Shown one piece after another: positions 1,007-5,922 of a stretch of DNA of 5,922 bases; position 1 is the stretch's first letter; each line of letters starts with the position of its first letter. The DNA is taken from positions 1 through 5,922 of the forward strand of contig NW_021829779.1 of assembly GCF_006345805.1 (NCBI RefSeq). The letters are read 5' to 3'. The DNA comes from Octopus sinensis. Lineage: Eukaryota. Under the pieces are notes generated by a model. It saw only the letters and a program-made list of their open reading frames with translations, was not told the DNA's origin and did not search any database. The position numbers and the translations under genes are program-made.

Positions 1007-1047
1007 ACAATTATCAATTAATATCGATTAAACGAAAAGAAGGCCAG

Positions 1048-1210
1048 CTTTAAATCTTAGCCTTTTAGCGGCTGATTTAGCCTCCAGAGAAACCGGTTAG
1101 ATGTGAAGCAGAGAAAGTATCCCAGCAGCTTGTATCCCATACGAGGCCTTTTCCCCTCTCAAATGGGAAAAGGGTCATCCTGTCAATTTCAAAAATTTCG
1201 GCTCACGACA
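1048..1210 (-). mobile_element. CRE-clade retrotransposon fragment, restriction-like endonuclease region
   Basis: Minus strand from 1178 reads MTLFPFERGKGLVWDTSCWDTFSASHL, 14/27 identical to LSTFPFEFGKSLIWDATFSDTFSELNL of the 3256-4385 copy. It is preceded by a frameshifted EPKFL and followed by a frameshifted EAKSAAKR. Confidence 0.75.
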
Positions 1211-1221
1211 GATGAATTGAA

Positions 1222-1413
1222 CGCAAGCTCAGAAGAGTTCAGTTGCCTTGGCATCAGTCTCGTCCTATCACCGTCCTTAATTCCTGTCACTTTCTCTGTT
1301 AATTACAATAAACTTAATTCAATTCTGGTTTCCGCGGGCGCGCGTGCACGGCGTTGTCGGGGCTGTGTTTTCTTGGATTTACATTGAACCTTGGATTTAC
1401 TTTTACTTTCCAA
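1222..1413 (-). pseudogene. Histone H2A-like remnant
   Basis: KDGDRTRLMPRQL (1278-1240) aligns ungapped with H2A RDNKKTRIIPRHL, and the following NSSEL resembles NDEEL. Upstream in the same frame are a Lys/Ser-rich tail and PRQRRA (H2A SRSNRA). There is an in-frame TAA at 1305-1303 and most of the central fold is missing. Confidence 0.55.
1372..1400. repeat. 11-bp direct repeat, 18-bp period
   Basis: CTTGGATTTAC at 1372-1382 and 1390-1400; on the minus strand it encodes the repeated KSK of the basic tail. Confidence 0.85.
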
Positions 1414-1575
1414 AATTTTCTTGGAACATTGTTTAGTAGAGGACATATTGTGACTATCCCAACCGTGCCCTAGCAAGGAGTCTTGGTTGTCCGGCAAAAG
1501 AAATGCTGCAAGAGCTTCATTAACAATAGTGAGGTAGTGTACCCTAACCTCATCACGCATACGCTCGAAAGGGAC
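1414..1575 (-). pseudogene. H3 histone-fold-like remnant
   Basis: VPFERMRDEV resembles H3 LPFQRLVREI; NEALAAFLLPDNQDSLL resembles QEASEAYLVGLFEDTNL; HG....MSSTKQCSKKI resembles HA....MPKDIQLARRI. The neighbouring frame gives VTI at the expected place. Identity is low and the L1 loop is deleted. Confidence 0.5.
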
Positions 1576-1699
1576 ATTGCAGGGTTTGTCCAAGTCAACC
1601 TCATGTGGTGCTAAGGGCGCCCAAAAAAATTTCGAGAATACGCATTGACCACCAATACTTCGGTTAACAATGAACTTATTAGAAGAGAGAACAATTAGG

Positions 1700-1858
1700 T
1701 TTGAATAAGTTTGTCTAGAGACTGAAATTCAGTAAAGTTATCAGTTTCGAAAACAAAGATTTTGATTATTCTTGACCATTTTTTCTTTCTTTTCCTTGAC
1801 CATGCAACTGGATTCTCAAAGCAACTGTACTGAGCCCTAAGTTTTTCCAAACAGCACT
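1700..1858 (-). pseudogene. Possible further H3-like remnant (TVALR region)
   Basis: Exact TVALR at 1828-1814. After a 24-nt insertion bounded by the repeat ATGGTCAAG, Q, L, KL and FK fall at H3 spacing. Contains stop codons and could be a chance match. Confidence 0.3.
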
Positions 1859-1882
1859 CATATAGTAGTTGTGAAATCATAT

Positions 1883-3024
1883 ATGAGAAATTTTCAAGAT
1901 TTTCTAAAAGATTCAATTGCAGAAGGAGAATACCAACAAATTGAAAAGACGCATAGTCTAAAGGACGGAGATGACTCCAGACCTCGAACGATACCTCTAG
2001 GAGAATTTCTTATACCGAAACAAGAAGATTGGGATAATCCCAACTACCAGAAAGTGTATATAAGTGGAGGGCCGATCCTTCTTAACATGAACGTTAAGAT
2101 GGAGGTCGGCACTTTCGCCCGGGAGTATAGACCTTTCTTAATAGAGCCCAAATATAAGTATAGAAAGAATGAGCGTGCAATAATCAATACACTGAATCGC
2201 ATGACCGATTTCAATCAAGAACTCGTGACCTCAAGTTTGGCCATCTTTCTCATGAACTACACTTTCGACGCTCCAGCTAGTTTCGGAGAGGTGGGAATTA
2301 CAGAAGAGTATCAGGATATTACAGGGTATTCCTTAGTGGGAAAAGGATTTATTGTAAAAACTGCAGCCATGGCTATGAATTTCGGGGAGTCTGGCGCAGA
2401 GGGTGGAAGGGCAACATTAGAAGAATGGAGGGTTGCCTTGATGAAATGAAAGTCCTATCTCCAGTTAGATTCGCTCATGCTGCTGAGAGTAGATCCCTTA
2501 TGGACAGATTCCACAGTGTGATGCGGAATCTTGACCCGACGTACCAGCCTGAACGGTCCTTGGTATTGAAAATGTATCAAAAATACCTGCCTGATCGAGG
2601 ACTGGACAAGCTTTGCTGTCTCCTCGATAAGATGTTGTATACGTGTCCGGAGGACCCCATGTCAGTTCTGAGATTTTGTACAATTCCGTTTTATAATGCA
2701 GGAAATGCGGTCCTGTCACGCGTAGTCTCCTTATGCGCTGCCTTTCCAAGAGAGTTAGAAAGAGCCGTAATGGTGGAATCTCTCTTCGCATCAGCTCATG
2801 TAAATGAAGTAAGTCGATTCATTGGGCATTGTTTCGAGGTTCTGAACCCAGATCCTTTATGTATATACCATAAGGGACTAGGCCTTGTTAAAGCGTCCGC
2901 CTTCAGTTCAATGTCATTACCAGGGTATTTTATGTATACAAGCGCTATAGCTGGTATGATAAAACACCCTAAATTTATGTTCTCCCGATCAATAACTCCA
3001 AACATTCCTGAAATATATATTTGA
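1883..3024 (+). pseudogene. N: Endogenous viral element: rhabdovirus-like (Mononegavirales) nucleoprotein, frameshifted and 3'-truncated
   Basis: Collinear matches to vesicular stomatitis virus (VSV) N recalled from memory: SFG...ITGYSLV (from 2279) vs SFG...IGIFDLV; SPVRF..LMD vs GLYRV..LMD; DKLCCLLDKMLYTCPEDPMSVLRFCTI vs TKIVAAVDMFFHMFKKHECASFRYGTI (ungapped); DPLCIYHKGLGLVKASAFSSMSLP (2851-2922) vs DSYMPYLIDFGLSSKSPYSSVKNP (ungapped, continuing to the Arg at 2986). Track ORFs 1871..2449 and 2425..3024 join into about 378 aa from ATG 1883 when one ATGAA is removed. No introns are evident, and GC is higher than in the flanks (28/60 at 2521-2580 vs 9/60 at 361-420). Confidence 0.9.
2441..2450 (+). 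repeat. 5-bp tandem duplication causing the N frameshift
   Basis: TTG ATGAA ATGAA A GTC. Deleting one unit gives TTG ATG AAA GTC (LMKV), joins both ORFs and removes the TGA at 2447-2449. Confidence 0.85.
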
Positions 3025-3186
3025 TCAATAATACTTATTATTTTTTCAAATAGGAAAACTTAGATAACCAAAACAATTTTGCAAACTGGATTAATTCAAA
3101 AAAGACTTTGATAAATTACCAAAATAATTAAGAGCTCTCAAAAATTTTCTACATTATGCACGTTTTCTAACATAAGTGAGAGAGAA

Positions 3187-3200
3187 CATACATACATACA
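3187..3200. repeat. (CATA)3 microsatellite
   Basis: CATACATACATACA read directly. Confidence 0.8.
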
Positions 3201-3255
3201 AAACTCTCAAAAGCACGATTGTTTCTTACAGGAACAGAGTTGAACCAAGGAAAAG

Positions 3256-4385
3256 GACTTTTGAAGCTCTCCGTGTTTTCACAAACAAAATCTCCTTTCC
3301 GATATTGAAAATATTCTGAAGTCCGAAGCAGAGTCGCTATGCAACGTACGTTTCGACCCTCTGGGTTGGATTCAATCCACCCTGCCTGTAAGCCGCGGTG
3401 GGATTGGACTCTGTTCTCCCGTGTCTATTGCTCTTCCTGCTTTCCTTTCGTCAGCGGCATCATCCCGTGTCCTCACTGACATTGTTCTCAGAAACCTACC
3501 CGAACGAAAAATGTCAGTTGATCACGTGGTCGCTTTGGACCTGTGGGATTCATTGAACAACAAGAGACCCAGTGACCCGCGTATCCAAGCTCAATGGGAC
3601 GCTATCTCATGTGAGGCTCTTGACGTACATCTACGCTAAAATTTCGATCGGCACAGACTTGCATGTCTCCGCGCAGGCTGCTGCACAGGGAGCGGGGCCT
3701 GGCTGGATGCTTTCCCTGTCCCTTCCACCGGTAACCTATTAGACAAGGATTGTCTACGAATTGGATTATCATTGTGCCTCGGATTGGAATCTGCGAAATA
3801 CATAAAATGTCGTTGTGGTGCTGTTATTGACAGTTTCGGTCTGCATCCCCTTTCCTGTCGTCGCAGTGCGGGCGCGCACCACGCCATGCAGCACTTAACG
3901 ACGTTCTTCATAGGGGGGTCACGGCCGCTCGCGACGTTCTCTTGAACCCGTTGGGCTTGCGAGGGGAGACGGAAAAAAGACCCGACGGTCTATCGACTTT
4001 CCCGTTTGAGTTCGGCAAGTCTCTGATATGGGATGCGACGTTTTCAGACACTTTCTCGGAGCTTAATCTTCCTTCTCTCAGGCTGGCTCAGTCTCTCGCA
4101 AAACCGAGAAGATGAAAATTGGAAAGTACAAGGAGCTCTCTGAACGATATCTGTTCTCTCCTATCGCCGTCGAGACTTCCGGCGTCATCGGCGAAAAGAT
4201 CTTTCCTTTTTGAAAAAGCTTGGCCGCATGATTTCCCATAAACGGGGAGACTCACGCGAGTCCAAGTGGCTTCTCGAAAGGATTTCCTTGGCTATAGTAC
4301 GTGGAAACTGTGTTTCCATTTACGAGGCGGGAATTTAGTTAGTTAATAACTATTTTATTCTTTAATTTACTTATTTACAAAAAAA
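3256..4385 (+). mobile_element. 5'-truncated, decayed CRE-clade non-LTR retrotransposon (post-RT region, CCHC finger, restriction-like endonuclease, 3' UTR, short A tail)
   Basis: In order: SSPCF, WIQSTLPVSRGGIGL, ALPAFLSS, SGAWLDAFP, C-x-C-x9-H-x3-C (3808-3858), RHAALND (3882), LEPVGL..GDGKRPDG (PD at 3981), WDAT (4029), KYKEL..YLFSPIAVETSG, WLLERISLAIVRGN. Stop at 4336-4338, T-rich UTR, A7 at 4379-4385. There is a premature TAA at 3637 and several frameshifts. Confidence 0.92.
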
Positions 4386-4471
4386 TTCTTGCCATTGAAT
4401 TCCATTTCCCCGCAACACCAAATTATTACGGACAAGAAAAGAGAGTATACTTCCGATAAAATCGTGTAGAA

Positions 4472-4502
4472 ATCATCAAGCTCATCCAGAGATCATCAAG
4501 CT
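4472..4502. repeat. 11-bp direct repeat, 20-bp period
   Basis: ATCATCAAGCT at 4472-4482 and 4492-4502. Confidence 0.85.
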
Positions 4503-4724
4503 TTTCTCCTTTATCGTTATCGTTATTTATTGAATTTCACATAATTTTGATAGAAAGTTCTATTCATTATATTCTTATAGCATAATTTTATTTATTTGTT
4601 CCTGGATTTTTTTAAAGTTTGAGTTGCTTTTTAATTTTTGAAAATCTTTTTTTCTTAAATTAATAGTAATTTCGATCCTTCAGTACTTGAACTTTAACTG
4701 CAGCAATTTCTAGGCATTCGTGCC

Positions 4725-4957
4725 CAAATTCGACGCAGTGATTCAAATTTTTCTAAACGGACATCACCTTTAACTGTGAATATGTTTGCCCATGTTTAGT
4801 TTCATAGTGACGTCGAATATTGTATTTTTTCATAACTGCAATTTTGTCATTGCACATGACACACACTGCATTTTTATGAATTCTATGAAAAAGTATTTAA
4901 GGTTCCATTCGTTGTTAAAACACGGCACTCAGTGTCAATTTTTTGTTTGTCTTTCAT
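4725..4957 (-). mobile_element. hAT transposase N-terminal fragment (SPIN/Charlie, GTF2IRD2-like)
   Basis: From ATG 4957, with three 1-nt deletions restored: MKDKQKIDTECRV(F)NNEWNLKYFFIEF.KNAVCVMCNDKIAVMKKYNIRRHYETKHGQTYSQL.GDVRLEKFESLRR. This is the typical KID.ECRVF..EW..KYFF / C..C...H....H BED-type zinc-finger start of this group. No catalytic domain or TIR was seen. Confidence 0.85.
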
Positions 4958-5184
4958 ATTGTGAGCAAACTAATTCAATACAAAATGACCAAACTAGCAT
5001 GAACAGTTACACCTGAATGTATCCTCTCCACTTCTGTTATGCTCTCGTCAATAAGTCTGACCAGGATTAAATCACATTCCTCTTGATTTGTGTTTATTTT
5101 GTTTCTTAATTCTGATTTTGGTCCAGGATCACAATTTTCCATTTGGAGTTCTAAATCCTTTGAAGTAACAAAATCATTGACTGT

Positions 5185-5610
5185 CGAGTTGTCTGGTCCT
5201 TGGCACAAAATATAATCAATTTGATTATATTTGTTTTTTTTCAGTTTGTTTGTTTTACAACCTACCCAGGTTGTATTATGCTGAAAAGCCATGTTACAAA
5301 TGGTTATTACAAATGTTGAAGTCGATTATAAGTTTCCAGAAGAATTTGATAACCCTTTTGTGATTAATCACCTGACAGCGTGAAAGTAAAAAAATAATCT
5401 TGTTGGCTAATTTTCGTTTCAGTCATCTCAATAATAGGTTTAAATCCGTTCCTCCACTGTTTTATTCATATAATTTTTAATATTTGCTTATCATCATAAA
5501 ATGTAGTCCTTCTATGTCCTAATATGCCCGATTGATTGAATAGTCGCAACATTCCGAAACTTTGAGAATATCTATTATTTGTGAATAATTGCATATGATT
5601 TCCGTTAATT
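5185..5610 (-). mobile_element. Decayed apurinic-like (APE) endonuclease of an RTE-type non-LTR retrotransposon
   Basis: Ordered motifs on the minus strand across frameshifts: IDILKVSE (5575-5552), GD(x)N (5372), N.SG..IIDF, ICNMAFQH.TTW and NQIDYILC. The 5190-5372 core is the best supported part. Confidence 0.65.
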
Positions 5611-5660
5611 TTCAACTAATATCGGGATTATTTACATGAGGCATTCTCAACTTTTTTTGT

Positions 5661-5752
5661 TTATCACCCCCTTTGAAATTTTATCGCCCCTTGTCCACAT
5701 ACAATTTAAAAATTTTGGGCATTGTCCCTTAATGGTTGTTTTGTCCCTTAAT
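5661..5752. repeat. Two pairs of short direct repeats
   Basis: TTATCACCCC (5661-5670) / TTATCGCCCC (5681-5690), and TTGTCCCTTAAT (5722-5733 and 5741-5752). Confidence 0.75.
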
Positions 5753-5922
5753 CATTATCGTATAAGGTTTGATGCTAACACCACATTTTCTTTTTCAATT
5801 ATCTAGTAAGATACTCCAATTTGTATCGATTCAAAACGGATTTAAAACTTTTTAATAATGTCCAATTTAGATTCCAGAATTTTTGCGATACATACAGATA
5901 TTTTATCTTTGAAGTTTTGGTA

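Follow-up and report, generated by a model that had tools for sequence, protein, structure and literature searches.

A truncated, frame-broken rhabdovirus-type nucleoprotein gene on a contig likely belonging to a dicyemid in a cephalopod assembly

The locus described here raises two questions, namely whether it truly derives from the nucleoprotein (N) gene of a rhabdovirus, and in whose genome it lies. The window, i.e. the whole stretch of DNA that was analysed, is the entire 5922-base contig C6250 of an Octopus sinensis assembly (2.72 Gb, 13,516 contigs). An initial annotation had read positions 1883 to 3024 as an endogenous N gene, left by a possibly undescribed virus that infected the host lineage.

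The coding stretch was described as intronless and GC-elevated, and from the ATG at 1883 onwards this is correct: the translation is N-like, and the GC content is 0.428 compared to 0.27-0.32 in the non-coding flanks of the window. While this start was accurate, the limits were not. Viral similarity extends from approximately 1848 to 3003, and the tail of the open reading frame, that is its last six codons (3004-3021) and the stop, belongs to a host repeat starting at 3000; at the 3' junction, repeat and viral similarity share about 3-4 bases. The frame is broken at approximately 2441-2450, giving one frame from 1883 to 2449 and a second ending at 3024, and five internal codons are missing. The copy amounts to 374 codons; as the unbroken natural relative on another contig (C6088) has 582, the window carries roughly 64% of the gene. 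The truncation may date from the capture itself or from a later insertion. With an end branch of 0.042, a length that includes divergence within the virus, the copy is probably young, and it is likely a non-coding fossil. Assembly errors may account for some of the frame breaks in these contigs, as duplicates that are otherwise identical do not share all of them. All features of the window are summarized in Table 1.

Table 1. Features located in the window, in order of position; percentages are identities.
Feature	Position	Strand	Evidence
Short piece of the non-LTR family also found at 3263-4385	1046..1201	-	Similarity to that family
LINE 3' end (AATAAA, short tandem tail)	1200..1321	+	Over ~120 nt, 93-98% to 7 copies; a LINE ORF precedes it in several
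Probable viral fragment, derived from the part of a viral sequence downstream of a nodavirus-like polymerase	1340..1759	-	96% (nt) to C12598; 52% (aa) over 82 to C12637 ORF
Piece from the beginning of a gag-like LINE ORF1 with zinc knuckle, oriented head to head with N	1757..1828	-	94-97% to L044, L046, L122; zf-CCHC weak in L046 ORF
Segment of viral origin: brief 5' untranslated part and first ~64% of rhabdovirus-type N gene	1848..3003	+	71-76% (nt) to other copies, from 1848/1876/1883 to 3002/3003
N 5' frame piece, 188 codons then stop	1883..2449	+	73-83% (aa) to 8 other copies; no Pfam match alone
N 3' frame piece, 186 codons, conserved core	2446..3003	+	83-94% (aa) to other copies; the frame containing it matches Rhabdo_ncap at E 0.022; aligned to VSV N
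Host repeat truncating N, supplies last six codons and stop	3000..3265	+	95-97% to C11711, C8744, C12699, C10248, with non-viral sequence upstream there
Broken 3' fragment of non-LTR retrotransposon	3263..4385	+	92-93% to many copies; tblastn to C6088 ORF

The Pfam scan proposed in the initial annotation did return Rhabdo_ncap (PF00945) for the 3' frame at E 0.022, but this match is weak, as its 14.1 bits lie below the curated cut-off of 26 bits. No N piece attains this cut-off (16 bits for the 582-aa copy, 19 bits for the best one), and the family was matched at E ≤ 0.1 in 9 of 16 N pieces from the same assembly (best E 0.00068). Unbiased tests came from profiles built of the assembly's own copies only (A2 and A3). 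With the core profile, vesicular stomatitis virus (VSV) N took ranks 1-5 among 177,635 PDB sequences (E 0.0034); the full-length own-copy profile reached VSV N at E 0.25 only. A search of 1.84 billion representative proteins gave three matches, two of them Rhabdo_ncap proteins (E 2.5e-55 and 1.6e-13), to which hhalign assigned 97.3% and 96.0%. The third (P0001), a repetitive protein, was dropped as a chance match. The nearest database proteins are only about 20-23% identical to N. PDB searches with single sequences, be it one of the two window pieces or the 582-aa copy, found no N, a word-index protein search returned nothing, all scores of an ESM Atlas search stayed under 0.9, and core-alignment scans of metagenome and viral contigs produced 160 and 18 pattern matches, respectively, of which none was confirmed. 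All significant sequence or profile matches of N are rhabdoviral. Since its score stays below the Pfam cut-off and its homology shows in profile comparison, the gene is named here a rhabdovirus-type N and not a formal member of the family. In its central point, supported by the own-copy profile and by hhalign, the initial annotation is borne out, and the window very probably holds a real endogenous fragment of such a gene.

A third profile (A1) contains two outside rhabdovirus proteins and was therefore used for residue mapping only. It matches VSV N at E 1e-23 over VSV residues ~146-352 (numbers counted along the printed chain of VSV N). The translation had been said to follow VSV N block by block, which is right for this range but not for the remainder, as the 188 codons of the 5' piece gave no Pfam match and no meaningful PDB match. 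Within the alignment, the invariant arginine of 'LRFCT' (2671-2673) stands opposite R214 and that of 'FSR' (2986-2988) opposite R317, both of a type which we take to be RNA-contacting; an equivalent of K286 is present, and GLVKASAFSS stands opposite GLSSKSPYSS, the motif noticed earlier. Of the three arginines previously claimed, R214 and R317 are hence aligned, and R143 falls just outside the alignment and is plausible only. Two AlphaFold models of N were both poor (pLDDT 40.7 and 44.9). A Foldseek search, likewise proposed at the outset, had rhabdovirus N as its top matches in BFVD (E 1.5e-3 and 0.12), but the better of the two reached a TM of only 0.15 with a poor model. PDB structure searches with these low-confidence models gave nothing significant, and VIA-align no Z ≥ 5.

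Around N, the window is a mosaic of host repeats. They bound N on both sides, and with its frame break, deletion and truncation the stretch is very probably a decayed viral gene in host DNA, a non-retroviral endogenous viral element. The non-LTR fragment on its 3' side has an intact relative on C6088 with a PHD finger and a reverse transcriptase (RVT_1 E 8.6e-18), presumably a 'CRE-like' element with a C-terminal endonuclease, for which Pfam gave no match. The sequence at 1200-1321 was considered as an LTR end and rejected in favour of a LINE 3' end. Two further observations concern the flanks. Within a multi-copy repeat, positions 427-456 and 985-1014 are inverted relative to each other over 30 nt, with 90% complementarity and a spacing of 528 nt; they are possibly the ends of a DNA transposon. 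The part from 3609 to 5919 is duplicated on C11858:33542-35890 at 96.8% without N upstream; no N lies within the 25 kb upstream there, and the contig was rejected as a clean empty site.

The gene is not alone, which the initial annotation had missed along with the truncation and the likely non-mollusc host. The 582-aa N has 67 matches in the assembly, all on unplaced contigs and none (0/67) on chromosome-scale ones. They form four lineages, approximately 76-90%, 37-44%, 23% and 20-21% identical to the 582-aa copy. Among copies of the window's lineage, the share of four-fold sites that differ is 0.45-0.86 in 96 of the 102 pairs that could be compared (median 0.71, with the out-of-frame piece C12597a excluded from these counts), and pairs nevertheless share 70-96% amino acid identity despite the saturated silent sites. 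The 16 in-frame copies form 11 groups, and within a set of 8 of them each group was compared with every other. Since silent sites are saturated and the protein is conserved, the captures likely involved no fewer than 8 separate variants of the virus. From the sequences, the pattern reads as divergence shaped by selection in the virus and followed by separate captures, and not as duplication after a single insertion. Later duplication is seen as well, with copies and flanks near 100% identical on C11370/C9311/C10060 and on C12603/C8999.

This multiplicity bears on two other explanations. A chimeric assembly or contamination by live virus could be suspected, as the stretch occurs in only one sequencing run (0.80 of words), which is possibly the source data. 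However, rhabdoviruses have no DNA stage, and there are dozens of copies with differing breaks and flanks, some of them duplicated together with flanks at near 100%, so that this explanation is scarcely credible. It is also very unlikely that the N-like genes are an old domesticated family of the parasite under host selection, with the window as its pseudogene. The very limited change of the protein compared to the saturated silent sites, as well as the unbroken 582-codon copy on C6088, would suit such a family, but that copy is the only full-length and unbroken one among those examined, flanks are unrelated beyond approximately 40 nt upstream, viral polymerase pieces and a second ORF (18 matches) are equally scattered, and one viral segment spans several genes with junction signals. 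Separate captures from a virus are hence the reading followed below.

The second ORF (C6088:10131-10928; L012:131-928) lies 130 nt past the unbroken N, is intronless and encodes 266 aa; other small contigs supply its 18 matches, at 30-79%. It has no family match and is probably the viral second gene, and no canonical gene junction separates it from N on C6088. On C6343, a TATGAAAAAAAAAC string that follows the second ORF was rejected as a gene end, as it sits in coding sequence. Directly 3' of a truncated N, a 285-aa ORF (L003:2682-3536; also L002, L004 and L005) is found in a near-identical block, in four copies on three contigs; it received no Pfam or Atlas assignment and is possibly another viral gene.

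The initial annotation had suggested looking for a matching L polymerase, and rhabdoviral L is indeed present, as fragments in the same assembly. Mononeg_RNA_pol gave 33 matches there and none in 14 controls. One L piece matched two rhabdoviral L chains at E 1e-69 and 1e-62, compared to 1e-19 for the next family, with a best identity of 40% in a large protein database. The 12 loci examined out of the 33 matches were closest to rhabdovirus-type L where compared, and rhabdoviral L and G pieces share the contig set of N. Gene order is seen on C9340:11500-18200, on the minus strand (L094), where an acidic/basic tail, a 417-aa ORF, an M-like ORF, a frame-broken G (Pfam E 1e-11) and the 5' part of L follow each other in order. 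Its borders carry TGAAAAAAAC(T)AACA-type junctions at three of four positions and the TGAAAAAAAC part alone at the fourth. The first ORF of this segment is probably P, and, as the copy spans several genes, a genome-length RNA would have been its template. In this assembly, the window's N lineage has no physical link to any L or G, and the C9340 copy is not tied to it. This missing link, together with the weak N scores and the non-significant listing of paramyxo-, borna- and pneumovirus N by the low-confidence models, would be in line with a source in another mononegaviral family, L and G then stemming from different viruses than the window's N. Yet each significant N match is rhabdoviral, as are, by their closest relatives, the L pieces compared in the 12 loci examined, and another family is thus improbable.

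Placing the rhabdovirus-type source more exactly was attempted with two quick L trees, the second of which had 8 rows dropped and 1 added compared to the first. In both, the L pieces lie outside a group of sigma-, tupa- and Culex rhabdoviruses with 98-99% support; they form one clade (94) in the first tree and have an open base in the second. Neither tree joins them to Wufeng shrew rhabdovirus 8, a long-branched alphaplatrhavirus and the sole platrhavirus sampled. Nesting of L among named members, which would place the pieces in the Alpharhabdovirinae, was not seen. A decayed rhabdoviral L fossil also sits on a host chromosome (C23:23139700-23141700, L090), where it groups with an alpharhabdovirus-like set.

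Other viral remains lie among these pieces. The N-terminal part of the C12637 ORF, to which the fragment upstream of N in the window is similar, matches an RNA-virus polymerase (8fm9, E 0.054), presumably that of a nodavirus, and a Noda_Vmethyltr piece is found on C10696 (E 3e-12). Noda-like fossils were noted at window positions 1340-1759, at L039:2-1426 and at L095:5955-6782; on C12598, the piece known from the window abuts a piece of a different N lineage.

The second question was prompted by the exon of BTAF1 that adjoins the unbroken N on C6088, as even its best matches across eukaryotes share just about 40% identity with it. The main organism is a mollusc, with 37 haemocyanin-domain matches including C5 and C28. 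However, the assembly holds two types of 18S, one of 1667 nt on C1618 and a GC-rich one of ~2.6 kb on chromosome-scale contigs. Against the short type (L080), the 18S primers R2 and F3 used for dicyemids (PMC6778094 supplement) have 0 and 2 mismatches, whereas the long type (L081) offers no site within 3 mismatches; the short type is called dicyemid by this primer match, not by phylogeny. Further partial or broken 18S matches, on C913 and at C2:131740446-131742615, could be from another organism or pseudogenes.

Gene structure points the same way. In BTAF1 on C6088, 8 candidate introns measure between 21 and 39 nt, and those of three Pax genes located on small contigs are 26-27 nt long; 9 of these 11 candidates, chosen by eye from homology and not from transcripts, measure 21-27 nt and the others 30 and 39 nt. 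In animals, introns under 30 nt are reported only from myxobolids and dicyemids, according to PMC13644364. Two Pax6-type genes are present, an ordinary one on the host-type contig C8955 and a divergent one on C9061 with a paired box, the start of a homeodomain and a 26-nt intron. For Dicyema, PMC2222250 gives a Pax6 and a mean intron of 26 nt, PMC6543705 a median of 27 nt (D. sp.), and PMC6736024 a GC content of 36.7% with 49% repeats. Genes with such ultra-short introns share contigs with N copies (C6088, C9497, C9300 and C12468). C10696, which carries an N copy, also holds a 358-nt piece of the short-type 18S (97%; C10696:43107-43464, L095:7108-7465) among viral and LINE fragments.

Since the window carries no host gene, its own assignment rests on repeats and composition. 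It contains no microsatellite bases, which agrees with 20 small-contig loci (0.2 per kb) and contrasts with 22 chromosome loci (44.8 per kb). Its repeats match 3 of the 20 small-contig loci and 0 of the 22 chromosome loci (118 kb), and it also has repeats in common with the short-18S contig and with C9061, the carrier of the divergent Pax6. A tetramer classifier (42/42 in leave-one-out) scores the window as second animal at 0.84, or 0.91 without 1321-3003, and puts the EVE-rich stretch L094 on the other side (0.34). With all 67 N matches on unplaced contigs of the second animal and the window binning there, a dicyemid endogenous viral element is likely, and there is a high probability that the contig belongs to a dicyemid co-assembled with its cephalopod host. 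Many unplaced contigs of up to 1.3 Mb, with a second BTAF1, Pax6, PIWI-like genes and 18S, appear to represent a substantial parasite genome within the mollusc assembly.

Two other locations were weighed against this one and are about equally improbable, each with a small chance. The element might sit in unplaced, repeat-rich DNA of the mollusc itself, for instance in heterochromatin resembling a piRNA cluster. The window indeed carries no gene, unplaced contigs of host type do exist (such as C8955 and its ordinary Pax6), and the mollusc carries a rhabdoviral L fossil on the chromosome-scale C23. Still, that fossil is of a different, alpharhabdovirus-like group, the repeats, microsatellites and classifier all separate the window from the chromosome loci, and N copies share contigs with ultra-short-intron genes and the short-18S piece. 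Alternatively, the second animal could be another parasite with short introns, e.g. a myxozoan, or a mix of parasite species. The two mismatches of primer F3 and the myxobolid introns of under 30 nt (PMC13644364) leave room for this, but primer R2 matches exactly, the divergent Pax6-type gene with its 26-nt intron fits that of Dicyema as given in PMC2222250, and the main genome is that of a mollusc, with dicyemids living in cephalopod kidneys at a prevalence of approximately 75% (PMC12953835). A dicyemid thus remains the preferred owner of the contig.

Taken as a whole, the stretch is likely a frame-broken, 3'-truncated DNA copy of a rhabdovirus-type N, integrated in a dicyemid that was co-assembled with its cephalopod host. 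The proposed course of events begins with a clade of rhabdoviruses that would repeatedly infect dicyemid germ cells. As these viruses lack a DNA stage, a reverse transcriptase of the host, presumably that of a non-LTR retrotransposon, would have copied the viral RNA, and the DNA would then have been joined into repeat-dense DNA; N shows neither a poly(A) tail nor an evident target duplication. Non-LTR elements are an abundant source of reverse transcriptase here, including the intact ORF on C6088. Their protein matches lie within 150 nt of N ends in 13 of 55 cases (24%), compared to 19% and 33% in two backgrounds, a test that counts protein matches only and misses untranslated pieces such as window 1757-1828. 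With no enrichment, adjacency names no culprit element. PIWI-like genes with short introns, their subfamily judged from motifs, lie on the same contig set as N, so that use of piRNAs is possible. A search for sequencing runs with the stretch listed no RNA run. If the window's N has any role, the most likely one is as a template for antiviral piRNAs, a suggestion we make tentatively; otherwise it would be neutral debris.

A single insertion of this kind would be ordinary, because endogenous rhabdovirus genes are a known phenomenon. What matters is the location: if the contigs are dicyemid, the fossils are evidence of viruses in that phylum. No paper on dicyemid viruses or viral fossils was found in the literature searched, with most subscription papers outside its reach, and within this scope it would be the first virus record for the phylum. 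The source is likely an undescribed rhabdovirus group captured many times, without a close relative among the 1.84 billion representative proteins. One may speculate further that dicyemids carry their own rhabdovirus radiation (four lineages of N and three or more of L, a group lying outside the sampled named members of the subfamily), which a PIWI-based memory in the germline would archive densely and repeatedly alongside noda-like and other viral remains, although we consider this somewhat doubtful. If it is true, part of the rhabdovirus signal from cephalopod tissue stems from parasite viruses, and a second spiralian parasite phylum joins the flatworms at the base of animal rhabdoviruses. 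Dicyemids, animals of approximately 30 cells, would also offer a very simple system in which to test for piRNA-based antiviral memory outside arthropods. The finding also bears on the idea of animal rhabdoviruses spreading through parasites, as put forward in PMC9241645. Finally, it is a warning that viral elements credited to a mollusc assembly may be those of its parasite.

In comparison with known systems, one related setting is that of cephalopod transcriptomes, from which Rey-Campos et al. reportedly described rhabdoviruses in 2023. The host system is the same, and some of those viruses may be relatives of the present group or infect dicyemids, so that members of this group may already be in print as cephalopod viruses. 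At the level of the protein, the likeness to VSV N (PF00945; PDB 2gic/3pmk) comprises a core of ~200 residues with equivalents of R214, K286 and R317 and the GL..K.S..SS motif; in contrast, the N-terminal 188 residues have no match, and the unbroken relative has 582 aa compared to 422 in VSV. Like the rhabdovirus-derived elements of Aedes (PMC5497376), the present ones comprise fragments of N, G and L that lie in clusters with transposon remnants and further viral sequences. They differ from them in the likely dicyemid host, in an M-like gene and a probable P, neither M nor P having been found in that study, and in their neighbours, which are mostly non-LTR and DNA-transposon pieces and not Ty3/gypsy LTRs. 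With regard to the platrhaviruses of parasitic flatworms, the L pieces did not group with the one alphaplatrhavirus sampled; the best Foldseek match, obtained with a poor model, was however the 538-aa N of the betaplatrhavirus Beihai dimarhabdovirus 1. The Alpha-, Beta- and Gammaplatrhavirus members described in PMC12451637 and PMC9241645 offer the same lesson as the present contigs, as they too are rhabdoviruses of parasites that were first credited to the hosts.
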